In this document: positions 20,611 through 45,016 of the stretch, in pieces
How positions within the stretch are numbered: the first letter of the stretch is position 1
Layout: each line of letters begins with the position of its first letter
Assembly (NCBI GenBank): GCA_965222605.1
Contig: OZ244960.1
Location: forward strand, 4,928,001-4,992,000
Direction of reading: 5' to 3'
DNA: 64,000 bases
Source: Candidatus Latescibacterota bacterium
Lineage (GTDB): Bacteria > Latescibacterota > UBA2968
Notes under the pieces: generated by a model
The model's database searches: none
Told to the model about the DNA's origin: nothing
Seen by the model: the letters and a program-made list of their open reading frames with translations, nothing else
Position numbers and translations under genes: made by a program

Positions 20611-22647
20611 ATGGTGCATGTACTGGAAATGAGGACGTCCTGTTTGGGCGTCCTTTCTGTTTTTATGTTGATGGCGTGTGTGACGGCAAATGCAAATTCG
20701 GTTGATTCGTTGCTCGCACGCGCACAAAGTGATACGTTGAAACCGCTTGATTACCGCATTGGTTTGCTTCGAAAAGCACTCAGTGTGGATGGCGACCGCG
20801 CAGATGTCTGTGCGGCATTGGGGGCGTTGTTTATGCAAAAGAACACGCCTGCGAGCAGGTTGCGTGCAGACCGCTATATTTATCGCGCGATTGTATTGGA
20901 TCCTGAGAATATAGATTATCATCTGTCTTACGCGACTCTGCAGCGCAAGAAGGGTTTTCGGTACAATGCCAGGCGATATTTCGAAAAGGTGCTCAGTATA
21001 GATTCAACACAGGTTGATGCAGCCTGTGAAGTGGGCGATTATTATTTGCAGGATATGTTGAAATACGTCGATGCGCGACGTTTTGACGGAGGTGGGAGTA
21101 TGCGATCTTTTGCAATGGAGAGCGTGCAAAGGGCCGCGGATTACTACCACTACGCGCTTGCACATGATCCCTATTGCAGGCGTGCGTATTACGGGTTGGG
21201 TATGCTGAGTATAGAGGGTGGGTATAAAGAGGATTTGATTGTTATTGCACAGGCACTTTTAGACCGACGGCCGCAGGATCGGGACGGACTTTTGTTTTTG
21301 GGATTGGGATATTATGCGACCGAAAAGTTTGAGGCGGCGGGCAAAGCATTTGATCGCGCGTACGCACAGATGGATTCGATTGGGCAGGCTGCAATGACTT
21401 CAATAAAATTGTTGGGTGGCGAGGATGAGACGCACGCGCTTTTTTGGCGAAAGCGCGATCCTTTGTTTCTCACGCCTGTGAACGAAAGAAAGCTGGCACA
21501 TCGCGGGCGGGTTGCTTATGCAAATTTGAGATTTGGTCTGCCCGATGAGGGGATTGCGGGTTGGGAAACGGATATGGGCAAGGTCTGGATTCGCTATGGT
21601 CGCTATGTCAATCGCGTGAGAACGCTTATTCCGCATCGAGAGATCTGGACATACGAAGATTTTTCAATGGACTTTTTTTCTTACGATTCCGTGCATTGGA
21701 AATTGGAATCGATGAAGGATGAGCGATGGGCACTTGTTCCGGGCGGATGGGGCAGAAGTCAGATTCTGTCTTCCAATTTCTATTTGCCCGAGCGCTATGT
21801 CGATCCATATCGAGATCAGAAATACAGATTGCCCGTGCAGGTGGGATTTTTTAAGGCGAGCGAAGGACAAGTCAAAGTGGCACTATCGTGGGGCATCCCC
21901 AAGCGTCAGTTGCAGTATCTCAAGCTCTATGGGACATATCAGGTCGATTTAGATGCAGGTATTTTTGTACACAGGAGTAACGGGCAAGAGGTAACGAATG
22001 TCAGGTGGGAACCAGAGGCATTTCGGGATGTTTGGACCGATTCATTAAAGGAGCGGTATTTGTTGGGACAACGCGATTTGGTTTTGGCACCGGATCAAAT
22101 TGCTTCGCAGTTGGACGCCGATTCACTTGCGCTGTCTTTAGAAATCAGAGATATGGGAAAGAAAACAGTGGGCGTGTTCCGCGATACCGTTTTTGTGCAG
22201 ACATTTCCCGATGATGTAATTTCTATGAGTTCTGTATTGTTGGCTTCACATGTGGGGGATGGCAAAGAGGGAATTGAGGTGATACCCAATCCATTGAGAA
22301 CTTTTGATGCGGACGAGTTGTTGTATATCTATTTTGAGATCTACAATTTAGTACGCGATGAGTTTGGTCAGACCGACTTTTCTGTGACGTACAGAGTAGG
22401 ACCGCCAGATTTGCGGCGTTTTTCTGATAAACGAGACCGAAAGGCGGTTGCGCAATTGGGTATAAGTGATGACATGTGGCGTATTTCTGTTAGTACGGAT
22501 TATCGAGGTGGGGATATGCTGGAGCCGATTTATTTGTCCGTTGACTTAAGTGAACTGGGGCCTGGCGTGCATCTGCTATCCGTAGTTGTCACTGACCGCG
22601 AAACCGGGTTACAAACCTGGCGAGAAACCCTGTTTCGCATTTTGTGA
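20611..22647 (+). CDS. GWxTD domain protein with TPR repeats
   Basis: FWRKRDP; GWETDMGKVWIRYG; signal peptide; start 20611 or 20629. Confidence 0.85.
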   Translation: MVHVLEMRTSCLGVLSVFMLMACVTANANSVDSLLARAQSDTLKPLDYRIGLLRKALSVDGDRADVCAALGALFMQKNTPASRLRADRYIYRAIVLDPENIDYHLSYATLQRKKGFRYNARRYFEKVLSIDSTQVDAACEVGDYYLQDMLKYVDARRFDGGGSMRSFAMESVQRAADYYHYALAHDPYCRRAYYGLGMLSIEGGYKEDLIVIAQALLDRRPQDRDGLLFLGLGYYATEKFEAAGKAFDRAYAQMDSIGQAAMTSIKLLGGEDETHALFWRKRDPLFLTPVNERKLAHRGRVAYANLRFGLPDEGIAGWETDMGKVWIRYGRYVNRVRTLIPHREIWTYEDFSMDFFSYDSVHWKLESMKDERWALVPGGWGRSQILSSNFYLPERYVDPYRDQKYRLPVQVGFFKASEGQVKVALSWGIPKRQLQYLKLYGTYQVDLDAGIFVHRSNGQEVTNVRWEPEAFRDVWTDSLKERYLLGQRDLVLAPDQIASQLDADSLALSLEIRDMGKKTVGVFRDTVFVQTFPDDVISMSSVLLASHVGDGKEGIEVIPNPLRTFDADELLYIYFEIYNLVRDEFGQTDFSVTYRVGPPDLRRFSDKRDRKAVAQLGISDDMWRISVSTDYRGGDMLEPIYLSVDLSELGPGVHLLSVVVTDRETGLQTWRETLFRIL

Positions 22648-24547: not shown

Positions 24548-25531
24548 TCAAAAAAATAAAATAGCCGAAATGCGGTACGTGTTGTCGAGTTGGTCGTGTT
24601 CCATGAAGGCGAGATCTACGCCAAACCGATGAAGTTGCAGGCCAGTGCCCGCTGTAAAGTGCCCGTCCTTGTATCCGAGGCGAAATGCAAGGCGATGTTG
24701 CAGGCGGTATTCTATACCCAGTTGTATGCTGCGTGTTTTTTCCAGTGTCGTTTTTTTGTCATTCAGGTGCGTGCTAAAACCGGCTGTCATATCGCCACCG
24801 GGCACCCTGCGTTGGAGGGCAGAGCCAATGAGAAGTGATGGCGAGATGCGATCTGAAATACCGTCGGGAAATGCAATGCGCGTCTTTGTGAGATCGCGTA
24901 TTGTCGCGCCAATGCGAAACGTCGATGTGGGCAGATAGAGCAGACCGATGTCCAGACCAAAGCCGCTTCCGATGCCCACGCTGAGATCGCGTCTGATCAT
25001 TTTTATACCTGCCCCAAGACGCAATTTATCTGTGATATGCCGCCCATAAGCGATTCGAAAGACGTAATCTGCCGTGCCGATTCTATCGATTATTACGGGT
25101 CGATTGTCTGGACCAATTGGACGATCTGGATCTTCCAGACCCGTCAGGGCAATCCCATCAACGCCAGCGCGAACAATGCCCAGACCAATGCCGCCTTTTC
25201 TCAGGGGCAAACGCAATGCAAAAATATCTTGATTTACACTGCCGCCAAATTGCTCCGCATGTTGTAAGTGAATTTCACGTTTTGGCAGCGATGAACGGCT
25301 GTTGAAGTCTGTCCTGGAGCGTGTTGGAGACACCTCAGGGGTAAGCCCTGCGGGATTCCAATAGATCGCCGTTGCATCAAAACTGAGCGCGACATAAGCA
25401 CTGCCCATGCCCAGGGCGCGGGCACCGGCACCCAATAAGAGTGGATCGCCTGTATAATGGGATGTCTGTGCATGAATTGGGCTTGTAAGCGCGCACGTGC
25501 AATATAATGCCAGGGTCGCAAAGCGTTTCAA
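24548..25531 (-). CDS. PorV/PorQ family outer-membrane protein
   Basis: GAGARALGMG..A..DATAIYWNPAGL; beta-strands; terminal F. Confidence 0.85.
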   Translation of the reverse strand: MKRFATLALYCTCALTSPIHAQTSHYTGDPLLLGAGARALGMGSAYVALSFDATAIYWNPAGLTPEVSPTRSRTDFNSRSSLPKREIHLQHAEQFGGSVNQDIFALRLPLRKGGIGLGIVRAGVDGIALTGLEDPDRPIGPDNRPVIIDRIGTADYVFRIAYGRHITDKLRLGAGIKMIRRDLSVGIGSGFGLDIGLLYLPTSTFRIGATIRDLTKTRIAFPDGISDRISPSLLIGSALQRRVPGGDMTAGFSTHLNDKKTTLEKTRSIQLGIEYRLQHRLAFRLGYKDGHFTAGTGLQLHRFGVDLAFMEHDQLDNTYRISAILFF

Positions 25532-27476: not shown

Positions 27477-28328
27477 TTATCGCCGTTCGCTTTTTTTGTA
27501 AAAGAGTTTGTTCAGTGGGCTTTTGGGAGCCGCAAGGTATTTGGCTTCATCGGGCGTCAGAGCTTTGTCAAAGACGGCGATTTCGTCGATTTGTCCGGGG
27601 TATTTGTAATGATTAAATCGCATCACGAGGGTTTCTATATCCCAGGTCACATTCTGCTGAAGCGGACCTTTGCGCCCTGCTTCTTTGCCATCTATATACA
27701 GTGCCCATTCTGCATCGGCCTTGCCGCTGTTAAAGTTGGACCATGTAATCGCGACGTGATGCCAGTCATTTGCACGCCAATTGACGGGAATAGAAATCAC
27801 GTATTTAGCGACTTCATTATCGCCAATTTCCTGTTTTTTATCGGGATAACATCCAAATCTGAGTGTGCCATCAACTTTTTTGAAATCGACGAATGCAACT
27901 GCATCATCCCACGGATATTTTTCGTCGTTTTTTTTTCCGACATGAAAAGGTTCGGGATAGTTGGATTCAAAGCTGGCGATGTCGGTTTGAAGCCAGAATG
28001 TAATGCTGCCAGACCACGCGCTGTTTGCACTGTAGGCGAGGTTATTTTTACCGCTGTAATCGAGTGCGCCTGCATTTGGGTTAAAAGCCAAATACCCGTC
28101 GGGATTGCCGCCCTGCTTAATGTGGTTGGTGTTGGCAGTGTCAAAGGTGGCCAACGGATCGCCAAGACTGTCGAGGGCGTCCACGCCTTTTTCAAAGTTG
28201 GCAAAAAAAAGTATGTGTGCTCGCAAGCTCTCTTCAATAGCCTTTTCGGGGCCACCACAAGCTGTTGTGAGCGTCAAAAATATGACGGTTAGAGTGCCGC
28301 GAGATAGATGGGGAAGGTGGAACGCCAT
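27477..28328 (-). CDS. LamG/concanavalin A-like domain lipoprotein
   Basis: Lipobox TAC; WHHVAITW; LYIDG; GQIDEIAVFDKALT. Confidence 0.85.
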   Translation of the reverse strand: MAFHLPHLSRGTLTVIFLTLTTACGGPEKAIEESLRAHILFFANFEKGVDALDSLGDPLATFDTANTNHIKQGGNPDGYLAFNPNAGALDYSGKNNLAYSANSAWSGSITFWLQTDIASFESNYPEPFHVGKKNDEKYPWDDAVAFVDFKKVDGTLRFGCYPDKKQEIGDNEVAKYVISIPVNWRANDWHHVAITWSNFNSGKADAEWALYIDGKEAGRKGPLQQNVTWDIETLVMRFNHYKYPGQIDEIAVFDKALTPDEAKYLAAPKSPLNKLFYKKSERR

Positions 28329-28383
28329 GTGTAAGGTCTCCAAAAAAGAAGTTCAGCGCATTGTGAAGTTGAGTACTTAAGTT

Positions 28384-28412
28384 GATATACTCCCAAAACG
28401 CGGGTATGTCAA
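28384..28412 (-). promoter_or_regulatory. sigma70-type promoter for the LamG gene
   Basis: TTGACA-17nt-TATATC on minus strand. Confidence 0.55.
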
Positions 28413-28484
28413 TAATAAAATAACGAGATTGCCAAGATAGCTTAAATGCTCGAAAAATCAATAGTGTGTGTCTCGGAAATTGTC

Positions 28485-28513
28485 TTGACATCTCAAAAGT
28501 TATTTATTAGCAT
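28485..28513 (+). promoter_or_regulatory. sigma70-type promoter for the 1615-aa gene operon
   Basis: TTGACA-17nt-TAGCAT. Confidence 0.55.
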
Positions 28514-28563
28514 AAAAATCCAATTTTCCCAGTAAGTTCGGCATTTTAACAGGAGCCTCCTCG

Positions 28564-31500
28564 ATGCGTAAAATCGGCACAGGTATTCTCTGGATTATCA
28601 CGATTTTGATGTTGTCTTCGGTGACCATTTTTAATCCGGGACAGGTGACGGATTTTTTTGTAACGCTTTTTAATATTAAACCGAGTATTCCCGAACTCAA
28701 ACCCATTGAAATTTCAGAACGCGATCGGGAAATTCGGTCCATTGCCGAGTCCATTAAACAAGAAGATGTGCACCAAATCATTGCCGACCTGTCGGGGATG
28801 GGGTCTCGGGTGCCCGGCTATGTGGGGCATCGGCGGGCTTTTGAATATGTCAAACAGCATTTTGAGCAAATTGGTCTCGAAGACATTGAGGTCGAAGAGC
28901 ACACGGTAACGGTTCCCATTGACAAAGGTGCTTCACTCACTTTGGCGGATACTGGCGAAGAGATTGCGGTTTACGGTTTTTGGCCCAACCATATACAAAC
29001 GCCCTCTGTACCCAGTGCTGGGATTTCGGGGACACTTATTTATGGGGGCAAGGGGGCATTTTCAGAACTCAATGGCAAAAAGGTCGAAGGCAGCATTGTC
29101 ATAATGGATTTCGATTGTGACCAGAGCTATTTAAGCCCGCGTATGCTGGGGGCACAGGCCATTTTATTTTATGACAATGGGCGGGTTACACAGGGCCAGG
29201 CAATGGACAAGTTTTTGCCCGTGCCCGTTGATGTGCCCCGGTTCTGGGTCGAAAAAGACGATGCTTTGCGCTTGCTCGAATTGGCCCAAACGCAATCGCC
29301 CGAAGTGCGTTTAACGTCAAAGATGGATTGGGAAGAGGTGCCGACCTGGAATATTTTTGCAACCCTCCCCGGATCCGAAGACTATATCACAGAGCGCGAA
29401 GAGCGCAAGTGGAAAGACCAGCAGATTGTGCTGAGTGCTTTTTACGATGCCATTTCCGTTGTACCCGCTCTCGCGCCGGGTGCTGAAAATGCGTCGGGGA
29501 TGGCTGCACTTTTGCATACTGCCCGCGTTTTGAAACGGCATCCGCCAAAATATTCGGTGACCTTTTTGGCAACTGGCTCTCATTTTCAAGGCCTATCGGG
29601 TATCAATGATTTTGTATATCGCCATTCGCGCGAAAGCGATCATTTCCGCGAGTTGATTCCCGATAGTGTGTCGGTTGCCGGTGCGTATCTCGATGGCGAA
29701 CTTATTCCGCGCGACAGCGAAGAGTTTGAAGAACTTATTCCCGACAGCTATAAAATTGATTTCCGGTTATTCATCGGCTTAGATCTGTCGAGTGAATCCG
29801 ATGAGTTGGCGAGCTTTTCACACGGCACCTTTAACAACCCAAATTGGCAGACCGACAATTATCTGAATAATCTGTTGGCGCCTTATGCGGACAAATTCGA
29901 TAAATATATGGCCAAAGTATTTCCGGGCGAAGAAGTGCGCCATGTCGATGCGATTGCACCGCCAAAACGCACATGGAAAAATTTTATGCCCATTCGCATG
30001 GGATTTGACAGCGAGGCCGTTACTTTTGTTGGAAAAGAAGGCATTACTCTGGCGACGCCATCAACTGTGCGGCGTTTTGTCGATACGCCCATTGATCGCG
30101 TTGAGAATGTCAATATGGACAATTTGACGCGCCAGGTCCAAACGGCGATAGCAGCCATGATGAAAGCGGGTGAAGATCCCGAGTTTTTCAGGGTATCCAA
30201 ACTCAAATTGCAAGATCGCGGACACAGTTTGAAAGGGCGCGTATTGTGGTTTGATCGCAATGTCGATTTCGCGTTGCCTCGCGTGCCCGTGCCCGGTGGG
30301 GTTGCGACGTATCGGCAGCCGGGCAATGTTCACAGTTGTGCGGGGGTGAGGACGCTGATTGTTGACAAGACGACAGAAGGTCCCATTTACGATATCAAAT
30401 TGGCAAAAAATAAAACAGATGCAGACCCAAACTTGTATGGCGATCCAGATGGTGTCAAACAAACGGGAGAGTTTTTCTTTAATATTATGCGCAATCGGTT
30501 TACCAATCGCATTTTGGCTTATGATATTGACGAAGAGGGGAATATTACATCGGCACCCGACATGGGTTCTGAGGGCGATAAGAAATTTCCACTGACACAG
30601 CGATATGGCTGGTGGGAAAATGAAATGATGACGGTTCTGTTTAAGAGCCGTTCCATCAGTGTTTTTGAAATTATCGATTCGAGCTATTTGTCGGCACTCG
30701 ATTTTATGACGGTGCTCAACGACAACGATACGCAGCCCCTGGAATTTGGCTATGCGTATTTGCCGGGGCAAAGCACCAAAGAGGGCGATGTGACACGCGC
30801 TGCTGTGACGTTTGCGCGTGTGGATGAACACACGGGGGAAGCTGAGCGGTTGAAAGTTTTGATGAGCACGGGCTTGTTTGGTGTTAAGTATTTGTTGATT
30901 AATGCGCCCCAGAAGTTTTTGGACAATCCTGTTGATAAACGCGCGGTGAATCCCGATCTTCTGGAAGAGGCCCGAGGTGAAGGGTATGAACCCGGCGTCA
31001 TTTTCACGCCCTCGTATCAGGCCGCCAAAGATATGTGGGTGATTGACGATGTGCGGATGAAACAGTTGGCACAATTTGGTATTGAGAACAATCGCCTTAC
31101 CCTGTTGCACAACAGCGCGCGTGAGGCACTGCTTGAAGCGCGTCAGCATCTTGAAAATTTGGATTACGAAGGGTTTATGGCCGCATCTCGGCGGGCATGG
31201 GGGCTGGAGGCGCGGGGGTATCCCGAAGTGATGGCTACTGCCAATGATACTGTGCGGGGCATTATTTTTTATTTTATTTTGTTGTTGCCATTTTCATTTT
31301 TCTGCGAGCGGTTGTTGATTGGCGCGTCGAGTATTACCGCGCGCTTGAGCTGGTTTGCCGCGTTTTTTGGGTTTTTCTTTATCGTTCTGCGCTTTGTCCA
31401 TCCGGCTTTTCAGTTGAGCAATTCTCCCTATATTATTTTTCTCGCATTTGTGATTATGGCCCTCGGCGGTGTGGCAATGGTCATTGTGGTGTCTAAGTTC

Positions 31501-33411
31501 GGTGATGAAGTTCGCAAAATGAAACAGGCTTCTGCCGGAACTTATGAAGCCGATGTTGGGCGCATTAGCGCGACATCGGCCGCGGTTGTGCTGGGCATTT
31601 CAAATCTGCGAAAGCGCCCCATGCGCACGGGGTTGACGGCGATTACCTTGACCTTATTGACGTTTACGACCCTGTCTTTTACCTCGGTGCAGACGTCGTT
31701 GAAGTTTTACAAATTGCCCCGCGACAATGAGCCATCTTATCAGGGGGCACTCGTGCGCGACCGATCCTGGCGGGGGATGCAGGAATCTGTTCTCAATTAC
31801 CTCAATAGCGCTTTTAAAGGCCGCGCTGATATTGTGCCGCGATCGTGGTATTTGTCACAGGTGCGGGGCGAGCGCGCTTATGTGAATTTCTCTCGCTTGA
31901 CAGAGGCCACCGCCGATATGGGTCCCAAGGAGATTTACGTCGATTTCGATGTGGGTATTACCACGGGAAAAGACAGTTTTGTCAATGCGCTGCTGGGGCT
32001 TACGCCAGACGAACCCAAAATTACCGGGGTTGATCGCTATTTGATGAGCGGGCGGTGGTTTGAACCCGGAGAAGAATTCGTTTGCTTGATACCCAATGAT
32101 CTGGCCGAGCTTGTCGGTATTTTTCCCGAGGATGCTGGCACGGCTAAAATTGAAATGCAGGGGCAGATTTTTACGGTGATTGGCATTCTCGATTCTGAAA
32201 TGTTTAACAAGTTCAAAGATCTGGATGATGAAAAACTGACCCCTGTTGATACGGTGAAAGAAAAAGACGATTTGGCAGATGCACAGGATCAGGACCCGCG
32301 GGTCGTCGCGGCTGCGCCTATTGAGACCTTTACCCATTTGGAATCGACCAATGTGCTTGTCGTACCCTATGAGTATATTCGGGATATCGGGGGTGTGTTG
32401 GCTTCGGTGGCGATTGCGAATTTCAAGGATGAGAGCGGGCAGCCCAAGTTGAATTTTGTTCCCGACATCGAGGAGTTTATGGCGCGCGTGTCTTTGACGA
32501 TGTTTGTGGGCAAGGATGATGGTGTAACCGTTTATAGTTCGATTGGTTCAACGTCGCTTTCTGGATTGGGCAATTTGTTTATCCCGATCTTGATTGCGGC
32601 ACTCATTGTGCTCAATACTATGATGGGTGCTGTGTATGAGCGTTTCCGAGAGATCAGTATTTATTCTTCGGTGGGATTGGCTCCCAATCATATTGCCGCA
32701 CTTTTCCTCGCGGAGGCCGGCGTGTTTGCCACACTCGGTGCGGTTTTGGGATATTTGATTGGACAAGTGCTCGTGCTCATACTTTACAATGAGGGATTGT
32801 TGGGTGGCCTGGAATTGAATTATTCGTCGCTGTCTGCAATTTCCGCCACGTTGATTGTGATGGCAACGGTATTTCTCTCAGCGCTTTATCCAGCGAAAAA
32901 AGCCGCGGATATGGCCGTGCCCGATGTGACCCGCAAATGGGAATTTCCCGATCCGGATGGCGATCGGTGGGTATTTGATTTTCCCTTTACCGTAGGTGGT
33001 ACCGAGGTATTGGGCATGTACTCCTATTTGACCCGGGTTTTTGAATCTTATGGCGAGGGATCGGTAGGTGATTTTGTTGCCGACCACGTAAAGTTCTGGT
33101 CTGAAGATCTCGAGGGTGAACCGCAATACAATATTGATCTGACGGCATGGTTGGCGCCTTATGATCTGGGGATTAGTCAGGAAGTGCAGTTAAAAGCCAT
33201 TCCAACGGGTGAGCACAATATTTATAAAATTGAAGTGGTGATCAATCGCTTGAGTGGCGATGTGGCGTCCTGGAAACGGATCAATCGCGGATTTTTGAAT
33301 GTGTTGCGAAAGCGGTTCCTGGTCTGGCGCACAATTCCAGGCGACATGAAGTTCAATTATGCAGAAGACGGACGCCGGGTGTTGTCTGGCGAAGTCGCGG
33401 CAATAGCATAA
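28564..33411 (+). CDS. Large membrane protein: PA + degenerate M28 peptidase-like ectodomain fused to a MacB/FtsX-type permease
   Basis: N-terminal TM; GSRVPG; PA-like GTLIYGGKG; SAFYD..PGAENASG; LRKRPMRT; LNTMMGAVYERFREISIYSSVG. Confidence 0.85.
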   Translation: MRKIGTGILWIITILMLSSVTIFNPGQVTDFFVTLFNIKPSIPELKPIEISERDREIRSIAESIKQEDVHQIIADLSGMGSRVPGYVGHRRAFEYVKQHFEQIGLEDIEVEEHTVTVPIDKGASLTLADTGEEIAVYGFWPNHIQTPSVPSAGISGTLIYGGKGAFSELNGKKVEGSIVIMDFDCDQSYLSPRMLGAQAILFYDNGRVTQGQAMDKFLPVPVDVPRFWVEKDDALRLLELAQTQSPEVRLTSKMDWEEVPTWNIFATLPGSEDYITEREERKWKDQQIVLSAFYDAISVVPALAPGAENASGMAALLHTARVLKRHPPKYSVTFLATGSHFQGLSGINDFVYRHSRESDHFRELIPDSVSVAGAYLDGELIPRDSEEFEELIPDSYKIDFRLFIGLDLSSESDELASFSHGTFNNPNWQTDNYLNNLLAPYADKFDKYMAKVFPGEEVRHVDAIAPPKRTWKNFMPIRMGFDSEAVTFVGKEGITLATPSTVRRFVDTPIDRVENVNMDNLTRQVQTAIAAMMKAGEDPEFFRVSKLKLQDRGHSLKGRVLWFDRNVDFALPRVPVPGGVATYRQPGNVHSCAGVRTLIVDKTTEGPIYDIKLAKNKTDADPNLYGDPDGVKQTGEFFFNIMRNRFTNRILAYDIDEEGNITSAPDMGSEGDKKFPLTQRYGWWENEMMTVLFKSRSISVFEIIDSSYLSALDFMTVLNDNDTQPLEFGYAYLPGQSTKEGDVTRAAVTFARVDEHTGEAERLKVLMSTGLFGVKYLLINAPQKFLDNPVDKRAVNPDLLEEARGEGYEPGVIFTPSYQAAKDMWVIDDVRMKQLAQFGIENNRLTLLHNSAREALLEARQHLENLDYEGFMAASRRAWGLEARGYPEVMATANDTVRGIIFYFILLLPFSFFCERLLIGASSITARLSWFAAFFGFFFIVLRFVHPAFQLSNSPYIIFLAFVIMALGGVAMVIVVSKFGDEVRKMKQASAGTYEADVGRISATSAAVVLGISNLRKRPMRTGLTAITLTLLTFTTLSFTSVQTSLKFYKLPRDNEPSYQGALVRDRSWRGMQESVLNYLNSAFKGRADIVPRSWYLSQVRGERAYVNFSRLTEATADMGPKEIYVDFDVGITTGKDSFVNALLGLTPDEPKITGVDRYLMSGRWFEPGEEFVCLIPNDLAELVGIFPEDAGTAKIEMQGQIFTVIGILDSEMFNKFKDLDDEKLTPVDTVKEKDDLADAQDQDPRVVAAAPIETFTHLESTNVLVVPYEYIRDIGGVLASVAIANFKDESGQPKLNFVPDIEEFMARVSLTMFVGKDDGVTVYSSIGSTSLSGLGNLFIPILIAALIVLNTMMGAVYERFREISIYSSVGLAPNHIAALFLAEAGVFATLGAVLGYLIGQVLVLILYNEGLLGGLELNYSSLSAISATLIVMATVFLSALYPAKKAADMAVPDVTRKWEFPDPDGDRWVFDFPFTVGGTEVLGMYSYLTRVFESYGEGSVGDFVADHVKFWSEDLEGEPQYNIDLTAWLAPYDLGISQEVQLKAIPTGEHNIYKIEVVINRLSGDVASWKRINRGFLNVLRKRFLVWRTIPGDMKFNYAEDGRRVLSGEVAAIA

Positions 33412-33448
33412 CGTGTAGATTTTGTGAATTTCCTTCTGGGAGGCAATT

Positions 33449-35503
33449 TTGGCAACTGAACCACGAGATACGGAAGAAACAGAAGAGGATCTGGCGGAAT
33501 ACGAACAGATTATGCCAGAGGACGCGCCCTTTGAAGATGGCTTTGGCTGGAAGACGATATGGGCGACCCTGTTCGTTGGGATTATCATGTTGCCGGGGGC
33601 GATTTATTTGGGCCTGGTGACCGGGCAGAGCATGGCTGGCGCGTCTGAGTGGGTGACGATTATTCTCTTTTTGGAGATTGCCAAGCGCTCTTTTGTTCGG
33701 CTCAAGACACAGGAAATTTTGATCATCTATTGGGTCGCCGCAGGGCTGTTGGGCATTGGGGTAAAACTCGGTTCGGGCGCACATCTATACGGCGGGCCTT
33801 TTGGAGGGTTGATCTGGGATCAGTATTTGATTCAGTCACCCGCAGCGCAAGGTCTGGATAAGTATATTCCGGGGTGGGTGACGCCGCCTTTGGATTCGCC
33901 GGTTTATGCCGAGCGCACGTTTGTGCATCCCGACTGGATTTTGCCGGTGTTGATTCTGTTTCTGGCCATGATCATCAATCAGACTGCGCGGCTGTCCTTT
34001 GGGTATGTGATGTTTCGCATTACCAGCGATATCGAGCAATTGCCTTTCCCGATGGAGCCCGTTCACGCACGCGGTGTCACCGCACTGGCTGAGACATCGG
34101 CCAAAACCGAGGGTTGGCGGTGGCGCGTGTTCAGTACGGGAACGTGTATTGGTCTGGTCTGGGGGCTGCTCTATGTGGTTGTGCCCACGTTGTCGGGCAT
34201 TTTTCTGACGGAGACCGTTCAGGTCTTGCCGATTCCGTTTATCGATTTTACAGCCGAGGTAAAGACCATATTGCCCGCTGCCGTATTTGGCATAGGAACG
34301 GATTTGGGGCATTTGTTGATCGGTTTTGTCCTGCCGTTTTACGTGGTGGTCGGATCTTTTATCGGTGCTGTGCTTGCCAATCTGGTGATTAATCCACTGC
34401 TTTATACCTACACAGATATTTTGAGCCGGTGGGCACCGGGGATGACGGCGATTCCCGCAAGTATTTCCAATCGCTTTGACTTCTGGTTGAGTTTTGGAAT
34501 TGGGACTTCATTTGTGATCGCGCTTACCGGGTTTTATATGGTGGGTAAAACCCTGTTGGAACAGCGCAAGGTGCAACAGGAAACAGGGCATCATTCGGTG
34601 AAAATTAGTATGGAGGATTTGCCCGAGGGCCGAGGGGATATACCGATGAAGTGGCCTCTTGTTTTATGGGTCATGGGTTCTTTGGCCGCTATTGGTTTGT
34701 GCCAGTGGCTCGTACCGGAATTTCACTGGTTATGGCTGGTTTTCTTCGCGTTTATTTATACGCCTGTTTCGTCTTATATCGGTGCTCGTATGATTGGTCT
34801 TACGGGCAGCCCTTATGGGGCGAGCATTCCCTATATTCGCGAAGCTGCCATTTTCATGTCGGGGTATAAGGGGGTGGCGGTGTGGTTTGCGCCCATTCCA
34901 CTGCACGATCACGGGCTGGCCGTGCGGCAGTTTAAGCAATTGGAATTGACCAAAACGAAGATCGGCAGTTATATCAAAATGGTGGTGATTACGACATTTG
35001 TGATTTTCCTGTGCAGCTTTTTGTTCTATGAGTTTATCTGGCGGTTGGGTCCCATTCCGTCTTCGACATATCCCTACGTGCAGTTGTTCTGGCCGTTTGA
35101 AGCTACGATGCAAACCATGTGGCTCAAATCGACTTTGCCACCTGGAGAAGTGCAGGGTGCTGCTGGCCTGGAACTGCTGGCGGATATTATTAAGATGAAA
35201 TATATCATCACTGGTTTGGTGTCGGGTGGACTTCTCTATCTGACACTGGTCGCCATCAAGGTTCCCGTGCTGGCATTTTTCGGTTTTGTGAATGGCCTGG
35301 CGCAATGGCCGCATTTTGTCATTTTGAATTTTGCCGGGGCGATGCTGGGGCGATACCATTTTGCCAAGCGGTTTGGCGAGTCCAAATGGCAGGCTTACGC
35401 GCCTATTTTACTGGCGGGTTATTCCTGTGGTATGGGGCTTATTGGCATGACCTCAATTGCCGTGGCTTTGATATCCAAGGCCGTGTCTCAGGTTGTTTTC
35501 TGA
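33449..35503 (+). CDS. OPT (oligopeptide transporter)-like polytopic membrane protein
   Basis: Many TM helices; EQLPFPMEP (OPT L.FP motif); TTG start after GGAGG. Confidence 0.75.
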   Translation: MATEPRDTEETEEDLAEYEQIMPEDAPFEDGFGWKTIWATLFVGIIMLPGAIYLGLVTGQSMAGASEWVTIILFLEIAKRSFVRLKTQEILIIYWVAAGLLGIGVKLGSGAHLYGGPFGGLIWDQYLIQSPAAQGLDKYIPGWVTPPLDSPVYAERTFVHPDWILPVLILFLAMIINQTARLSFGYVMFRITSDIEQLPFPMEPVHARGVTALAETSAKTEGWRWRVFSTGTCIGLVWGLLYVVVPTLSGIFLTETVQVLPIPFIDFTAEVKTILPAAVFGIGTDLGHLLIGFVLPFYVVVGSFIGAVLANLVINPLLYTYTDILSRWAPGMTAIPASISNRFDFWLSFGIGTSFVIALTGFYMVGKTLLEQRKVQQETGHHSVKISMEDLPEGRGDIPMKWPLVLWVMGSLAAIGLCQWLVPEFHWLWLVFFAFIYTPVSSYIGARMIGLTGSPYGASIPYIREAAIFMSGYKGVAVWFAPIPLHDHGLAVRQFKQLELTKTKIGSYIKMVVITTFVIFLCSFLFYEFIWRLGPIPSSTYPYVQLFWPFEATMQTMWLKSTLPPGEVQGAAGLELLADIIKMKYIITGLVSGGLLYLTLVAIKVPVLAFFGFVNGLAQWPHFVILNFAGAMLGRYHFAKRFGESKWQAYAPILLAGYSCGMGLIGMTSIAVALISKAVSQVVF

Positions 35504-35526
35504 GATAAAAAGAAGGTGGAACTTTT

Positions 35527-35575
35527 ATCCGGGCATGTGTCGTCTAATTTGTTGCGATATATGCCCGGATTTTTA
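35527..35575 (+). terminator. Hairpin/terminator after the OPT-like gene
   Basis: atccgggcat...atgcccggat followed by a T run. Confidence 0.55.
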
Positions 35576-35609
35576 TAGGTATTTTTTCACTTTTTTAAAG
35601 GAGCAGATT

Positions 35610-36110
35610 ATGCAGAGGTTTCGACTTTTCGGTTTTTTGGCAGTGGCAATGCTTATGGCCGCGTCCTGCGATGTGTGGGCACAGCCTCAAAGAGGTGGTC
35701 AAGGTCAAGGAGGGCGCGGGGGCGCACGCGGGGGCGTTCAGGTGCAGCGTTTTTTGCCAGTTGAACAGGTGCTGAGTTTTCTGTCGTTTAACGAGAATGT
35801 GGCTCTGAGCGATGAGCAACTCGTCAAGGTGCGCGCGTCACTTAAAGGGGTTTATACAAAACGCCAGGAATTGCAGAGAAGCCTGCGCGGAAGCACCGAC
35901 CAGCAGGCGGCGATGCAGAAAGTGCGCGCACTGCGAATGGAAATGACACAGGGTCTGACTGCTATACTCAATGAGGATCAGACAAAAGTATTTCAAGAAG
36001 AGATGCAGCGGATGAGCCAGCGCGGGCAGCGCGGTCAAGGCGGGCAGCGCGGGCAGCGCGGAGGGCAAGGTGGTCAGGGTGGTCGCCGTGGTGGCGGCGG
36101 TGGTGAATAG
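35610..36110 (+). CDS. Secreted Spy/CpxP-like helical protein with Gly/Gln/Arg-rich tails
   Basis: Signal peptide; LSDEQ and LNEDQ (LTxxQ-like) motifs; AAGGAG RBS. Confidence 0.7.
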   Translation: MQRFRLFGFLAVAMLMAASCDVWAQPQRGGQGQGGRGGARGGVQVQRFLPVEQVLSFLSFNENVALSDEQLVKVRASLKGVYTKRQELQRSLRGSTDQQAAMQKVRALRMEMTQGLTAILNEDQTKVFQEEMQRMSQRGQRGQGGQRGQRGGQGGQGGRRGGGGGE

Positions 36111-36148
36111 CTGAGATACACATCTGTCTGTTAAGTGTTGGAGATATC

Positions 36149-36188
36149 AAAACGCGGGTTTCTTTGAAGAAGCCCGCGTTTGTTTTTT
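36149..36188 (+). terminator. Intrinsic terminator
   Basis: aaacgcgggtttct-agaagcccgcgttt followed by a T run. Confidence 0.75.
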
Positions 36189-36233
36189 GGGCGCGCTTGT
36201 TTATCGTGAAAAAATGGGTTACATTATCGCACA

Positions 36234-37607
36234 TTGCAATGGGAGGGTTCTGTGATACCTGAGTCTATCAAACATATCAAGCGGCCTTTTTCATTTGCGG
36301 TTGTGAGTGATACGCATTTTGTAACGCGAGATTTTATCGGACAGGCATTTGACGCGACAAGACCGCTCAGCACTGAGGGGTATGTGAAAAATGTGACCTA
36401 TTCGCTTGCGCCTATGATGGATGCATTGCGCCATCTCAAACCGGATTTTATAGTTTTGACCGGCGATGTGGCCGAACCCCCGCTGGATCCAGAACGCCAC
36501 TGTGAGAATCTCAAGGCTGCACTGGATTTTTTTGCCACCTGCGATATTCCCATAGTCGTCGCTCGCGGCAATCACGATGGTACTTCGACTTTTGATGAGG
36601 TTGTGGGGCCGCGTATTGCACAGTTTTTGGGCGAGGCGCCCAAAGCGCATTATTTTTCCTTTGAGGTGGATGGTTGCCAGTTTATTGTTCTGGATACGCC
36701 GTATTGGAATACTGAGCAATGTCAGTGGCTCGATGCCGTGTTGGAAAAAAATGCTTATACACCATTGTTTTTGCTGGGGCATCATCCTATATGGCCGGTA
36801 GCACGCGCTTTTTTTTATAATCGCGATTTTCAGACGGATATGGTCAATCTTTTGTCTCGGCACGCGATTGATGCCTATTTTTGTGGGCATTCACACAATC
36901 AAAGTATTGTGTTGCACCGCACGCCTCATTTGCCGGTGTTGCAGTGTATGGGTGCTCTGGTTGGGTTGTCTGACGCACCGCCGCTTCCGCTCAACCGAGT
37001 TCAGGCCCTTTTGCCCACATCCGATGATCTCATGGCTGTTTGGCCCGGATATATTGAAAATACGGCTCCGGGGTGGTTTATGGGATATGTTGCACAGGGC
37101 CAGGCGCGTGTGGAATGGCATCATATTAACCGCGGGGCCGAAGCCCTGGTGCGTTGGTTTCGTCCTGGGGACATTCAGACTTTTTGGACAATGGATCCCG
37201 CGCCACCAGCGCAACTCATTGAAGCAAATTTGGGGCGTATTCGCCAGGGGATGCTCCGTTTTTGTGCCTGGGATAGTATGGGAGATGCGCGCGTATTTCT
37301 CAATGGGAATGAGATTGGCCTTTTGCCACGTGCAGATAATTTTACGCCCAGTCGCCTGTCTTTACCACCCAACGCGCTCGCTTGTTTGCAGATGGAAAAT
37401 AAGGTGCGTATTGAACCGGCTGAGGGCAGTGAGATAACGCTTGGCAATCTGGTTCTCGAAGTGGTATTGCCCGGTGGTCGTTATGTGCGGTCGCTGGTTT
37501 TTGAAGATATTTATACGTGGTCTAACCGGTGGGATGAGTATGAATATGAGACACTGCAAAAGATGCAACCGGGACGACCGTTAGCGACGGTGTTGTCTTT
37601 CAGGTGA
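36234..37607 (+). CDS. Calcineurin-like metallophosphoesterase with C-terminal beta domain
   Basis: SDTH; TGD; GNHD; HHP; GHSH. Confidence 0.88.
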
Positions 37608-43162: not shown

Positions 43163-45016
43163 ATGGTTATGGCTATCGCTACTCAAAGTTTCCAAGATCG
43201 ACTCATGGACGGGGATATGACCCTGGATGTTTCTCCGGAGGTGGATCCGAGCAATCTGGTGTATTACAAATTGTGCTCTGCTGATGATTTTGAAGAAGGC
43301 GAAGGAAAGCCGTTTACGGTGGAGGGCACCCACATCGCCGTTTTCCGCTACGAGGGGAGGTTCAATGCGGTGGACAACCGGTGTCCGCACATGGGATATC
43401 CGATGTCCGAGGGCAGCGTTCGGGACGGGGTCCTAATCTGTCACTGGCACCACTGGGAGTTCGACCTTAAGACGGGCGGCTGTTTCATAACCTCCGGAGC
43501 TGGAAACGATCTGAAGAGCTTTCCCTTGGAGGTGCGAGACGACGGGTGTCTGTACGTGGGGCTTGCGCCGGGCGAAAAAGAGGCGGCCAGACGCCGGCGG
43601 ATTGACCGGGGGAAGTATATTCTTGAGCAGGGTCTAAAAGATCGGAGCTCGCTCCTGATTGCCAAGGCGATTACCGCGCTAAGGGCTGTGGGTGCCACGC
43701 CGCAGGAGATGATCCAGCAGGGACTTTTTTATGGGGCATATAAATCGAATGAGGGTTGGTCATCGGGGGTGGCCATTTTGACGCTGGCTGCAAATATGTG
43801 GGAAGATGTAGATGAGAAGGACCACAATCTTTTCCTGGTCCACGGGCTGACGCAGATTTCCAGACGCACATCAGGAGGTTCGCGGCGGCAGGGTTTCTCT
43901 TTGCCCAAAACATCGGACGAACCGGACTTGGCGACCCTCAAACGCTGGTTCCGGCGGCTGGTAGATCAGCGCAGCAGCAGCGCTGCACAGCGCATTCTGA
44001 TGACCCTGTACGACCGTGGATATTCACCAGAAGAGATTGCGGATATCGTTTTTACCACGGCGACGGATTTCTATTTTACCGGGGACGGTCATGCGCTCGA
44101 TTTCGCGAATAAGATGTTCGAGGCCTTAGATTATGTGGACTGGGAAGGGGCGAATGAGATTTTGCGACCGATTGTGGTGGACTTAGTGGGCAGGGAACGA
44201 CACGAGGAGACCGCCCGGTGGGAAGACAGCGTGCCGGTCTTGGAAGATATTTTCACCCGTCTGGACGAGATGTGGGAAGCGAACCAGAAGAACGAGGCAA
44301 CGCTGGATATTTCTGCTTTTACGCAGACGCTGCTGGGGGAGGAGTTCGAGCCGATTGTCGCCGAGATCGAAGACAAACTGCGCGAGGGTGTGAAGCCCAC
44401 GGATATCTGCCGGGCGATGACCTATGCCGGAGCCATCCGCACGGCGCGGTTCCACCTCAAGAACGAGGGGGACTGGCACGATGTGGCGAATATTTACTCT
44501 TACGCCCATGCCCTCTATCGCGCTTTCCACCGGGCGCCGAGCGAAGAGCTTTTGCGCGGCATTTTCCACGGCGCTGTGTTTATGACCTATTTGCGCTGGC
44601 TCAACATGCCAGCGGCCCGCCTGCCCAGGGAAGGACAGCGGCTGGACGAGACGTTCGCGTCTGAGGACAAGATGTTGGACCGGCTACAGGAATTTGCGGA
44701 TTTCCAGAAGGTCTTCGAGGCTGAGGTGCTGGTAAGCCAGTACCTGGAGGAAGGATACGATATCGCGAAGCTCAGGCATACTTTGGCCCATATTATGCTG
44801 CGCGAGGATGCGGAGTTGCACATGTTCCAGGTGCTGGAGGTGGCGTTCCTGCACTCCGACATGTCGGACGATCCGAAGGAGAAGCGTATGCACCTGCTGG
44901 CGGCGACCCGGTATATTACCGCCCAGAAGGTGATGAAGGGGATTCTGTGGTCCACGGAGAACGCGGAGCGGCTGCAGCGCGGGGAACTGCTAAGCGAGCG
45001 AGATGATGATAATTAG
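43163..45016 (+). CDS. Rieske [2Fe-2S] domain fused to a large helical domain
   Basis: CPHMG...CHWHHWEFD; GHALDF.NK.FE; REDAELH; GAGGAGG RBS. Confidence 0.88.
   Translation: MVMAIATQSFQDRLMDGDMTLDVSPEVDPSNLVYYKLCSADDFEEGEGKPFTVEGTHIAVFRYEGRFNAVDNRCPHMGYPMSEGSVRDGVLICHWHHWEFDLKTGGCFITSGAGNDLKSFPLEVRDDGCLYVGLAPGEKEAARRRRIDRGKYILEQGLKDRSSLLIAKAITALRAVGATPQEMIQQGLFYGAYKSNEGWSSGVAILTLAANMWEDVDEKDHNLFLVHGLTQISRRTSGGSRRQGFSLPKTSDEPDLATLKRWFRRLVDQRSSSAAQRILMTLYDRGYSPEEIADIVFTTATDFYFTGDGHALDFANKMFEALDYVDWEGANEILRPIVVDLVGRERHEETARWEDSVPVLEDIFTRLDEMWEANQKNEATLDISAFTQTLLGEEFEPIVAEIEDKLREGVKPTDICRAMTYAGAIRTARFHLKNEGDWHDVANIYSYAHALYRAFHRAPSEELLRGIFHGAVFMTYLRWLNMPAARLPREGQRLDETFASEDKMLDRLQEFADFQKVFEAEVLVSQYLEEGYDIAKLRHTLAHIMLREDAELHMFQVLEVAFLHSDMSDDPKEKRMHLLAATRYITAQKVMKGILWSTENAERLQRGELLSERDDDN

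Follow-up and report, generated by a model that had tools for sequence, protein, structure and literature searches.

A giant membrane protein that joins an M28-type ectodomain to a MacB/FtsX-type module is functionally linked to an OPT-fold transporter in Latescibacterota, and this link is conserved far beyond chance. We tentatively favour reading the pair as an envelope capture-and-uptake module of this phylum, in which an FtsX-type giant with an M28 effector would act together with an OPT-fold importer and an ATPase supplied in trans. A literature search found no published description of such a giant/OPT-fold system, in keeping with the initial annotation of this DNA, which had presented it as a candidate uncharacterised system.

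A two-gene unit with a conserved OPT-superfamily partner

The giant gene (28564..33411, forward strand, ATG start; 1615 aa) lies in a 64,000-nucleotide stretch of DNA that we refer to as the window, and encodes an M28/PA-like ectodomain, a MacB/FtsX-type module and a C-terminal domain. It is followed after 37 nt by a gene for an OPT/Yellow-Stripe-fold transporter (33449..35503, forward strand; 684 aa, with a TTG start preceded by GGGAGG), so that the ORF coordinates agree with the arrangement first described. The pair had also been credited with its own promoter and a closing hairpin. The hairpin stands: an intrinsic-terminator-like element with a T-rich tail (35527..35588, hairpin 35527-35570, forward strand) ends the unit 3' of the OPT-like gene at -37 kcal/mol (z -6.8), a stability equalled in 0 of 200 shuffles. 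The promoter is less secure, as a promoter-like site (TTGACA-17-TAGCAT, 28485..28513, forward strand, 10/12 matches) lies in the 220-nt gap that precedes the giant gene, but such sites show no excess across the region (12 found vs 9.7 +/- 3.1 in shuffles). Contigs from the RNA libraries of three studies span 28536-35532, starting at 28536-28577 and ending at 35478-35532, and those of two studies bridge the junction between the genes; because DNA carry-over is possible, they give a weak hint of expression. A single transcription unit is the best explanation for the two genes.

Locus surveys covered the best 80 of 443 relatives of the giant gene, with partners classed as P0002-type (the OPT-like partner gene) or as DUF6785, the other OPT-superfamily type. 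Among these 80 loci, 25 held only a P0002-type gene, 24 only DUF6785, 25 both and 6 neither, and in 22 a P0002-type gene lay at most 150 nt downstream of the giant gene. Rare co-occurrence had been named as the outcome that would count against a paired system; of the 59 loci whose flanks both extend for 8 kb or more, 58 instead had an OPT-superfamily gene. By chance, a same-size window of this genome would contain DUF6785 with probability 0.19 and a P0002-type gene with probability 0.007. Clades differ in gene order while the OPT-superfamily partners stay constant, and among the three giant paralogues in this genome a P0002-type gene immediately follows two, while the third lies within 8 kb of two DUF6785 genes. 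Distances between giant and OPT-like proteins co-vary (r 0.90, 48 pairs), to which shared descent contributes. The recurrent neighbour families in the 80 loci were OPT-like, DUF6785, a PPIase-domain protein and a lipoprotein. The suggestion that a LamG lipoprotein and a downstream "Spy-like" protein belong to the system did not hold up, since both genes recur in close relatives only (loci L014-L032) and the small "Spy-like" protein matched neither Spy nor CpxP. On the opposite strand, 2 kb upstream, there is an L,D-transpeptidase gene.

The second protein itself matched no Pfam or NCBIfam family, and its identity as OPT-like, first assigned from sequence features, is now borne out by its predicted fold. 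Its AF2 model (pLDDT 76, pTM 0.81) had barley Yellow Stripe 1 as its only Foldseek match (E 8.8e-9; next E 0.08), and VIA aligned 542 of 600 residues to this transporter (Z 19.6, rmsd 4.1; next Z 5.3), which points to a whole-length fold in common with the OPT family (TC 2.A.67, PF03169; Yellow Stripe 1 structures 7wsr/7wst). Unlike members of that family, the protein is just 14% identical to Yellow Stripe 1 and has no PF03169 sequence match, with 0 of 36 members of its own family reaching E<=1 in the Pfam copy used; PDB sequence searches, a profile search included, returned no match for the family either. Precomputed PF03169 matches do exist for several 95%-identical relatives, and relatives are named 'peptide transporter' in NCBI records. 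By sequence, the protein is closest to DUF6785 (hhalign probability 94.7%, 204 columns), whose 56 paralogues in this genome often lie beside a SusC-like TonB-dependent receptor, sulfatases and sugar oxidoreductases, cassettes that count in favour of a nutrient role for the transporter superfamily.

An M28-fold ectodomain with an altered metal site

Homologues of the giant protein (542 at E<=1e-3) are typically about 1530-1620 aa long. The domain order first predicted (N-terminal TM, PA/M28 ectodomain, three TMs, MacB/FtsX block) agrees with AF2 modelling, Pfam, PDB matches and hydropathy, all features being on the forward strand. The protein begins with a TM helix (aa 4-22, 28573..28629, by hydropathy; helix 2-21 in the model) that is predicted to be an N-in signal anchor, followed by an M28 aminopeptidase fold with a PA insert (aa 50-546, 28711..30201, from the AF2 model, fold matches and alignments). 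The insert spans approximately aa 125-265 (28936..29358), as aligned to the PA regions of 2ek8 and 6hc6. Model secondary structure then delimits a beta-rich domain (aa ~547-815) and a helical stalk (aa ~816-895; together 30202..31248), a region that fold searches barely covered and for which a PDB sequence search (E<=10) gave 0 matches and the Atlas no lead. Three TM helices (aa ~896-990, 31249..31533, by hydropathy and model helices) lead into the MacB/FtsX-type module (31591..32910), with TM1 at ~1020-1042, a periplasmic domain at ~1043-1331 and TM2-4 at 1332-1449, and a homologue search defined a conserved cytoplasmic C-terminal domain (aa 1450-1615, 32911..33408). The AF2 model of residues 1-1010 reached pLDDT 83 and pTM 0.79.

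Pfam Peptidase_M28 matched residues 282-361 only (E 2.6e-8), PDB sequence matches to residues 43-362 were the PA-bearing M28 aminopeptidases 2ek8 (Aneurinibacillus AP) and 6hc6 (B. subtilis BSAP/YwaD), and PF02225 is precomputed for several homologues. Modelled residues 50-546 superposed on Aeromonas aminopeptidase 1rtq (Z 29.2, 270 aligned, rmsd 2.7) and on 2ek8 (Z 27.4, 394 aligned). The M28 core and PA insert are thus shared with PA-domain aminopeptidases, PaAP from P. aeruginosa among them (Foldseek E 1.7e-21 to 2.5e-19, VIA Z 26-27), whereas the M28 domain here is membrane-embedded within a 1615-aa protein and its site differs, the five Zn ligands and general base reading F/Y/H, E, F, D, E and H instead of H, D, E, D, H and E. 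In the alignments, the ligand motif HxD reads F293-Y294-D295, GAxDDASG reads GA-E308-NASG (shorter by one residue) and EE reads H340-F341. Among 77 giant ORFs, D295, H340, F341, D407 and E484 are each conserved in all 77 and E308 in 75, the first ligand position is Tyr or Phe in 63 and His in 14, and the equivalent of Zn ligand Glu152 is always Phe.

These columns agree with the initial annotation that several Zn ligands are altered and that the dinuclear Zn site is not intact. They speak against its comparison to simple ligand loss in non-catalytic receptors, since the replacements D295, E308, H340, D407 and E484 are invariant or nearly so. Because of this near-invariance we prefer a rebuilt to a dead site, and the residue patterns fit better with a site that was rebuilt rather than decayed, and that may hold a metal or ligand and is possibly catalytic. 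Like transferrin receptor (Z 25.4, Foldseek E 9.5e-17), nicastrin, nicalin (a weak sequence match, E 0.42) and GPAA1, the giant protein places a PA-bearing M28 fold lacking the canonical Zn ligands on a membrane protein, and its ectodomain matches a GPI transamidase subunit at Z 18.9. Unlike those receptors, it is bacterial and fused to an FtsX-type module, and its invariant substituted residues suggest a working site. Eukaryotic ERMP1/FXNA-type proteins likewise fuse an M28-fold lumenal or extracytoplasmic domain to many TM helices, with a membrane part that is not of FtsX type and with canonical ligands apparently retained.

The invariant substituted residues, which argue for chemistry at the site, are also what an anchored metallohydrolase would predict. 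In that case the M28 domain would be catalytically active, as a non-canonical exopeptidase or amidase in which H340 acts as the base while E308, D407 and E484 bind the metal, and the FtsX part would serve only for anchoring or oligomerisation, with no mechanical coupling. The His at the first ligand position in 14 of 77 relatives and the closest folds, which are active PA-bearing aminopeptidases, are consistent with this, and a downstream OPT-type importer would suit product uptake and so be linked metabolically. We nevertheless consider it unlikely, because conservation is highest in the FtsX module with its periplasmic domain and in the C-terminal domain, which a mere anchor would hardly explain, and because Phe at the Glu152 position and Tyr or Phe for the first His in most relatives would leave the known M28 mechanism unable to run as such.

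An FtsX-type module and the source of its ATPase

Pfam FtsX matched residues 1339-1449 (E 4.8e-13), PDB sequence matches at 1322-1450 were to MacB, YtrF and LolC, hydropathy placed TM2-4 at 1332-1441, and PF12704 (MacB_PCD) is precomputed for some homologues. As in MacB, LolCDE and other type VII ABC systems, a large periplasmic domain sits between TM1 and TM2 of a four-helix FtsX module that carries an ERxREI-type coupling-helix motif, here ERFREI on the cytoplasmic side between TM2 and TM3, with E1359, R1360, E1363 and I1364 invariant. Unlike those systems, the giant has its hydrolase-fold domain fused upstream in the same chain by way of four additional TM helices, has an added 165-aa cytoplasmic C-terminal domain, lacks a fused or adjacent ATPase in most loci, and has as its constant genetic partner an OPT-fold permease rather than an adaptor, TolC, LolA or an amidase. 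Its NCBIfam scores are all far under the cut-offs (26.5 bits vs 966 for MacB). The C-terminal domain was found in 1461 cluster representatives (E<=1e-3) and, among the best 150 of these, stands at the extreme C-terminus of nearly all apparently full-length proteins, mostly of 1450-3053 aa; it matched no known family and no PDB entry and gave no Atlas lead. By analogy with the structures of MacB and LolCDE, it would occupy the ATPase docking place of MacB-type proteins.

The lack of an ABC ATPase noted at first is confirmed locally. The nearest ABC_tran genes lie ~14 kb downstream on the other strand and ~20 kb upstream in a separate permease-permease-ATPase set (window 5258-8425), and no ATPase gene adjoins any of the three giant paralogues in the genome (nearest 14-68 kb off). 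Among the best 80 of 443 loci, any ABC ATPase occurred in 5, below the 0.21 expected of random windows, and a mini-FtsX in 2. The claim fails as a general one, since a mini-FtsX/ATPase pair ends the operon in five genomes (deep families f7, f9 and f12), in the one-strand order giant, OPT-like, gene X, mini-FtsX, ABC ATPase, and deep-branching lineages with a single giant copy have the pair in this operon. The orthologous pair of the present genome (58% and 75% identical) is single-copy, at genome position 1.50 Mb, which is 3.5 Mb away from the locus. Such an operon-closing pair elsewhere, and its single copy here, make ATP coupling in trans a live option. Many FtsX-type permeases of the genome also lack an adjacent ATPase, so supply in trans seems usual. 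Across the phylum, mini-FtsX was found in 100 of 121 genomes and the giant C-terminal domain in 107, and neither was found in family f10 (13 genomes), a joint absence that amounts to one phylogenetic event. Giant gene and mini-FtsX/ATPase are unlinked in families f5, f6, f13 and f14, and metagenome loci centred on mini-FtsX had a giant gene upstream in 2 of 80, or in 1 of the 25 whose upstream flank reached 8 kb or more.

The absence of an ATPase gene from 75 of the best 80 loci would also suit a machine without any ATPase, in which the C-terminal domain replaces the NBD and the proton cycle of the OPT protein drives or gates the FtsX helices, or the helices gate the OPT protein, coupling ligand capture to import without ATP. 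Two points speak for this idea: the C-terminal domain, to our knowledge without counterpart in MacB, LolC or FtsX, marks the family throughout, and the sole constant neighbour is an OPT-superfamily gene. It is nonetheless quite improbable, given the invariant ERFREI motif shared with ATPase-dependent relatives, the operons of the deep-branching lineages and the apparently usual supply in trans, and we know of no FtsX-type protein that functions without an ATPase.

Envelope remodelling and sensing

In published accounts, type VII ABC systems are paired with periplasmic hydrolases (FtsEX-EnvC, FtsEX-RipC, FtsEX-CwlO and YbbAP-TesA), and FtsEX is known to govern such hydrolases or activators that resemble degenerate hydrolases. 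The giant protein resembles these in combining a membrane mechanotransducer with a hydrolase-fold partner, and its FtsX-like module could by extension control a peptidase-fold domain that, though degenerate, cleaves peptidoglycan or envelope proteins or activates their cleavage, the OPT-fold protein recycling the freed muropeptides. One 2451-aa family member adds LysM and the M23-associated NMB0315 domain I, which speaks for the cell wall rather than nutrients, and the nearby L,D-transpeptidase gene and a near-universal distribution in the phylum (107 of 121 genomes) point the same way. Yet we judge an FtsEX-type role very unlikely, as genomes carry 1-8 copies with diverged ectodomains, which resembles substrate diversification, the partner superfamily occurs in TonB-receptor/sulfatase cassettes, the envelope genes upstream recur in close relatives only, and a canonical ftsEX pair is present elsewhere (4.808 Mb). 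That the FtsX-type part instead signals ectodomain occupancy through the C-terminal domain to a cytoplasmic partner regulating uptake genes, as MacB-type proteins can act as sensors in BceAB-BceRS, would suit the large ligand-binding-type ectodomain and conserved cytoplasmic domain, but is highly improbable because no kinase, sigma/anti-sigma factor or regulator gene recurs in the best 80 of 443 loci.

A capture-and-uptake module

For the capture-and-uptake module that we favour, the giant protein would be a membrane mechanotransducer of type VII (MacB/FtsX-like) that carries its periplasmic effector in the same polypeptide. This effector is a PA-bearing M28-fold domain whose Zn site appears rebuilt as a conserved D/E/H/D/E site; its most likely role is to bind an oligomer, for instance a peptide or glycopeptide, and perhaps to trim it. 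Import across the inner membrane of whatever the ectodomain captures or sets free would fall to the OPT-fold protein, or to its DUF6785 relatives at other loci, in contact with the giant. Energy for the FtsX module most likely comes from an ABC ATPase whose gene lies away from the locus. The strongest candidate is the single-copy mini-FtsX/ATPase pair at 1.50 Mb, and this pair may join the giant protein in a LolCDE-like heterodimer. The conservation of the pairing throughout the phylum points to a previously undescribed capture-and-uptake machine.

A giant FtsX-type gene and its OPT-like partner

The core of the system consists of two plus-strand genes, the giant gene (28564..33411, ATG start), which encodes a 1615-aa protein joining a PA/M28-like ectodomain to a MacB/FtsX-type module and a C-terminal domain, and the gene of the predicted OPT/Yellow Stripe-fold protein P0002 (33449..35503, 684 aa), which begins 37 nt further along the same strand with a TTG preceded by GGGAGG. 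The initial annotation had credited this pair with its own promoter and a closing hairpin. The hairpin is well supported, since the 17-bp stem with T-rich tail 3' of the P0002 gene (35527-35588, +) has a folding energy of -37 kcal/mol (z -6.8) and none of 200 shuffles was equally stable; a promoter-like site does lie at 28485-28513 (+), in the 220-nt AT-rich gap 5' of the pair, yet the region shows no excess of such sites over shuffled sequence. RNA-library contigs from three studies span 28536-35532, with the gene junction bridged in two of these studies, and 28300-28535 and 35533-36300 are nearly bare of them, which hints weakly at the transcript ends. Because these data are contigs, with DNA carry-over possible, they give a weak hint that the two genes share one transcript.

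Downstream lies a gene for a small lipoprotein-like protein of 166 aa (35610-36110, +; ATG at 35610). Its signal peptide ends in AASC, Gly/Gln/Arg-rich repeats stand at either end of the protein, and the gene has a strong terminator of its own (36150-36181). A longer frame from 35493 would run over the last bases of the P0002 gene and probably does not have the true start. The protein had been described as Spy-like, but it gave no Spy or CpxP match. LamG, small lipoprotein, metallophosphoesterase and DUF255 genes were considered as parts of the system and set aside, as they recur only in loci of close relatives (L014-L032), to which the envelope genes upstream in the window are likewise confined.

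Conservation of the pair was evaluated from 542 giant-protein homologues (E<=1e-3, word-indexed search) and 443 giant-gene relatives encoded in species-representative genomes, of which the best 80 loci were surveyed for linkage with up to 10 kb of flank each and HMMs built for this analysis. Among these 80 loci, 25 hold a relative of P0002 (a P0002-type gene) only, 24 a DUF6785 gene only and 25 both, with neither partner in the remaining 6, five of which have short flanks. Where both flanks reach at least 8 kb (59 loci), one or the other partner is present in 58, against frequencies of 0.19 (DUF6785) and 0.007 (P0002-type) in same-size random windows of this genome, so that the proposed pairing is conserved as one of the giant gene with an OPT-superfamily partner. 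The P0002-type gene follows within 150 nt of the giant gene in 22 of the 80 loci, and gene orders differ by clade while the partners stay constant (giant-OPT-like; DUF6785-giant-DUF6785; giant-DUF6785-OPT-like; PPIase gene-OPT-like-DUF6785-giant). Giant and OPT-like distances also co-vary (r 0.90, 48 pairs), to which shared descent contributes. This genome itself carries three giant paralogues, with a P0002-type gene following two of them (the window copy and the one at 0.145 Mb), and two DUF6785 genes within 8 kb of the third, at 3.27 Mb.

Loci of more distant relatives (L046, L058, L061-L092) also carry a gene with a PpiC-type PPIase domain (26 loci), and a 263-aa lipoprotein gene without a Pfam family recurs in 18 distant giant loci; a tblastn search of this genome at E<=1e-3 recovered neither gene. 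Elsewhere in the window, an unusual fusion of 1110 aa (16818-20150, +) joins Peptidase_MA_2, PD40 beta-propeller repeats and an Omp85-like C-terminal region, and a DDE_Tnp_1_4 transposase gene (13984-15348, -; E 4e-150) marks an insertion sequence. The GC skew changes sign at ~44000-47000 and the coding strand switches from plus to minus at ~46 kb, which may be a replication landmark or merely a strand switch.

Architecture of the giant protein

Pfam recognizes Peptidase_M28 (PF04389; 34.3 bits, cut-off 21.3) over residues 282-361 only, corresponding to profile positions 11-86 of 193, and FtsX (PF02687; 49.7 bits, cut-off 25.5) over residues 1339-1449, and NCBIfam matches to MacB, LolC and ADOP were weak and all far under the family cut-offs. 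PDB sequence searches linked residues 43-362 to the PA-bearing M28 aminopeptidases 2ek8 and 6hc6, and residues 1322-1450 to MacB, YtrF and LolC. In an AF2 model of residues 1-1010, built from a 36-row alignment (pLDDT 83, pTM 0.79), residues 50-546 superpose on Aeromonas aminopeptidase (1rtq; VIA Z 29.2, 270 aligned, rmsd 2.7) and also match PA-bearing aminopeptidases, transferrin receptor and GCPII, and Foldseek placed the model against 2ek8 at E 1.7e-21. As modelled, the giant protein possesses the alpha/beta aminopeptidase fold of family M28.

Beyond this fold the model is beta-rich at residues ~547-815 and forms a helical stalk at ~816-895; residues 547-905 had no PDB sequence match, and 547-815 gave no usable ESM Atlas lead. 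Hydropathy and the model place TM helices at 4-22 and, three in number, at ~896-990, followed by the FtsX module and a 165-aa C-terminal tail, an order from which both large domains would be periplasmic and the tail cytoplasmic. TM2-TM4 of an FtsX domain were found, with E1359, R1360, E1363 and I1364 of the coupling helix invariant, and ~290 residues separate TM1 (~1020-1042) from TM2 (1332). The MacB_PCD family (PF12704) is precomputed for some homologues and absent from the giant protein itself at E<=0.1. As for shorter forms of the C-terminal module, the five examined start inside the stalk/TM region and most others come from short contigs.

The C-terminal domain, searched alone as residues 1440-1615, recovered 1461 cluster representatives (50% identity) at E<=1e-3, 1129 of them at E<=1e-10 and 139 at E<=1e-30. 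Among the 150 matches listed, it sits at the extreme C-terminus of nearly all full-length-looking proteins, mostly of 1450-3053 aa. Four larger family members retain FtsX, two with a Peptidase_M28 hit and a third with a weak hit to Nicastrin (M28-like), and bear Big_5, LysM or NMB0315 domain I as extra domains. A PDB sequence search with the domain reached a best E of 1.2, and the ESM Atlas returned no usable match. Records that carry the domain also bear the labels Armatimonadota, Planctomycetota and Omnitrophota.

A rebuilt M28 site

Evaluating the peptidase site further, we compared it with the five zinc ligands of AAP: His, Asp, Glu, Asp and His (H97, D117, E152, D179, H256). The five corresponding positions of the giant protein are F293, E308, F341, D407 and E484, a set that differs from the canonical one; D407 and E484 were placed by motif and family alignment, and F293, E308 and H340-F341 by alignment to 2ek8, 6hc6 and Aeromonas aminopeptidase. 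Through these latter alignments the HxD motif reads F293-Y294-D295, GAxDDASG reads GA-E308-NASG, shorter by one residue, and EE reads H340-F341, where H340 stands opposite the first Glu in 2ek8 (position 151 of AAP) and so replaces the general-base Glu. The site columns were read in 77 giant ORFs of the 80 surveyed loci, and D295, H340, F341, D407 and E484 are each present in all 77, E308 in 75 with Asp in the other two, whereas position 293 varies (Y 35, F 28, H 14). The same residues dominate in 92 more distant full-length representatives, for which the alignment is less certain (D in 79, E or D in 73, H in 71, D in 71 and E in 63).

By these alignments the canonical dinuclear Zn site of M28 is not intact, as the initial annotation had proposed from the loss of several ligands, but the loss does not read as decay: because the substituted residues are kept this consistently, D295, H340, D407 and E484 among them, the predicted site follows a single rebuilt pattern, without drift. 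An alternative that we consider unlikely makes the giant protein an active non-canonical hydrolase and its FtsX part only an anchor; the fixed site speaks for it, and the strong conservation of the FtsX module against it.

A candidate ATPase supplied in trans

The initial annotation also saw no ABC ATPase nearby, and locally this holds, as the 14 kb around each of the three giant paralogues are free of one and thus no cognate adjacent ATPase was found (nearest ABC_tran at 14-20 kb for the window copy, 58-68 kb for the second paralogue and 37 kb for the third). An ABC ATPase occurs in 5 of the 80 giant loci, rarer than the 0.21 for random windows. The claim does not extend to five genomes of families f7, f9 and f12, however, where a candidate is part of one same-strand cluster of (DUF6785), giant gene, OPT-like gene, gene X (a 293-aa gene with no Pfam family), mini-FtsX and ABC ATPase; at the two of these loci designated L043 and L093, the giant/OPT-like pair precedes a 228-aa FtsX-type protein that lacks a periplasmic domain and, after it, the ATPase.

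This genome encodes an orthologous mini-FtsX (229 aa, likewise without a periplasmic domain) and ABC ATPase at G000:C1:1499278-1500764 (-), among housekeeping genes and with 58% and 75% identity to the orthologues, and the pair is also found at loci L104-L108 and L110-L189. Across 121 genomes of the phylum, mini-FtsX is present in 100, always as a single copy, and the giant C-terminal domain in 107 (1-8 matches per genome). None of the 13 family f10 genomes yielded either one, and most of the remaining mismatches fall in genomes that are 57-89% complete. Approached from the mini-FtsX side, the ATPase follows directly in 73 of 80 metagenome loci, the other 7 stopping at a contig edge, and gene X lies upstream in 10 of 80. 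Against a dedicated link, the giant gene is upstream in 2 of these 80 loci (1 of 25 with at least 8 kb upstream), and the giant gene and mini-FtsX are unlinked in families f5, f6, f13 and f14. A candidate trans-acting ATPase module therefore exists, whose link to the giant gene comes from three families (f7, f9, f12) and is rarely seen from the mini-FtsX side. The local scarcity of ATPases speaks for, and this module in the same operon against, a second alternative, that coupling is ATPase-free and runs through the C-terminal domain, to which we attach rather little weight.

A separate, canonical MacB/LolCDE-like set at window 5258-8425 (+) comprises two FtsX-type permeases (405 and 409 aa) and an ABC ATPase (251 aa), the latter being the nearest one upstream of the giant gene. 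At G000:C1:3093184-3151240, a ~58-kb array holds ~20 genes for ADOP-type double-FtsX permeases (~800 aa each) and only four ABC ATPase matches; FtsX-type permeases in this genome far outnumber adjacent ATPases.

P0002 and DUF6785

P0002 has no Pfam hit at E<=0.1, no NCBIfam hit and no PDB sequence match, alone or as a profile, and the OPT model (PF03169) recovers 0 of 36 P0002 relatives at E<=1; a PF03169.21 label is precomputed for several relatives 95% identical to P0002, and record names of its relatives read "peptide transporter". The AF2 model of P0002 (pLDDT 76, pTM 0.81) matched barley Yellow Stripe 1 (HvYS1) in Foldseek at E 8.8e-9 (TM 0.57-0.67; next match E 0.08) and in VIA at Z 19.6 over 542 aligned residues (runner-up Z 5.3). 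Because HvYS1 is the sole match of the model and PF03169 gives no hit, P0002 is assigned a predicted OPT/YSL fold yet fails the OPT family sequence model; the earlier description of it as OPT-like agrees with this match to a solved member. A profile-profile comparison with 56 DUF6785 paralogues (probability 94.7%, E 6e-8) was limited to the N-terminal 204 columns, and an ERLxFP motif is common to both profiles, so that, with no Pfam hit, P0002 appears to be a distant relative of DUF6785/DUF6784 (PF20581/PF20580) and not a member. The OPT family (TC 2.A.67) carries out proton-coupled import of oligopeptides or metal chelates, and to our knowledge its bacterial proteins have hardly been studied.

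This 6.34-Mb genome encodes 56 full-length copies of DUF6785, against none in 14 control genomes. Two relatives lie in the window (20611-22647; 24548-25531), and we found no mention of DUF6785 in the literature searched. Within 9 kb of the 56 copies, a SusC-like receptor (CarboxypepD_reg and Plug) accompanies 16, a ~790-aa protein without a Pfam family 22, a UPF0164/FadL-like barrel 22 and all three together 14, with a sulfatase near 21 and a GFO/IDH/MocA oxidoreductase near 10. Many DUF6785/DUF6784 copies end cassettes that run from an OM beta-barrel and SusC-like TonB receptor through the ~790-aa protein and the UPF0164/FadL-like barrel, sometimes with a GWxTD protein, to DUF6785 (for example G000 C1:609009-619988 and C1:682426-693063). 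These neighbourhoods look like polymer-utilisation cassettes with an OPT-superfamily inner-membrane importer, and because DUF6785 sits in them, a nutrient-uptake role is favoured for the giant/OPT-like pair. Set beside this, an FtsEX-like role in envelope remodelling with muropeptide recycling seems quite improbable. A role of the giant protein as a sensor is less likely still.

Proposed mechanism and significance

The giant/OPT-like system is a genuine one, common across the phylum and so far undescribed, and its parts are of known kinds in a new combination; the observation behind the initial annotation is thus confirmed and its interpretation partly supported. Searches of main article texts found no description of FtsX, oligopeptide transporter and M28 in combination and no FtsX-like permease with M28. 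Nor did they find Latescibacter, FtsX and M28 together, the one FtsX/M28 co-mention being an unrelated Streptococcus sRNA study. The Latescibacteria genome paper counts M28 among nutritional peptidases and describes ABC, symport and PTS uptake, and the term OPT has 0 occurrences in it (PMC4454575).

We tentatively favour, at somewhat less than even confidence, a reading in which the giant protein would be a mechanotransducer of type VII style that carries, fused in cis, an M28 receptor or hydrolase domain with a rebuilt site. The M28-type domain would capture or trim oligomers in the periplasm before they pass to the OPT-fold importer, with power for the giant protein coming from an ATPase in trans. 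The known roles of type VII ABC systems are export, extraction and the activation of cell-wall hydrolases, and we know of no such system tied to an importer. Published work on type VII ABC systems includes PMC5985334, PMC7668044, PMC12646458, PMC10694151 and PMC6705773.

A bolder proposal, to which we give little credence, is that a single physical machine is built from the giant protein and the OPT-fold permease. In it, a MacB-type mechanotransducer with a rebuilt M28 receptor domain would press or hand periplasmic oligomers into a channel of secondary-transporter fold, the C-terminal domain and not a bound ATPase would couple proton-driven transport to periplasmic mechanics, and DUF6785 would play the same role in the TonB-receptor cassettes. 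If so, Latescibacterota would have a new inner-membrane uptake route by a kind of machine so far undescribed. Were the coupling physical, it would give an uncultured phylum of polymer degraders a novel means of importing oligomers through the inner membrane, and the rebuilt M28 site and the C-terminal domain would gain testable roles. DUF6785, absent from that literature despite its many copies here, is the probable inner-membrane importer of the phylum's TonB-receptor and sulfatase cassettes. The family that brings a type VII ABC module together with an OPT-type importer is large, with 1461 clusters (50% identity) and a presence in 107 of the 121 Latescibacterota genomes sampled.
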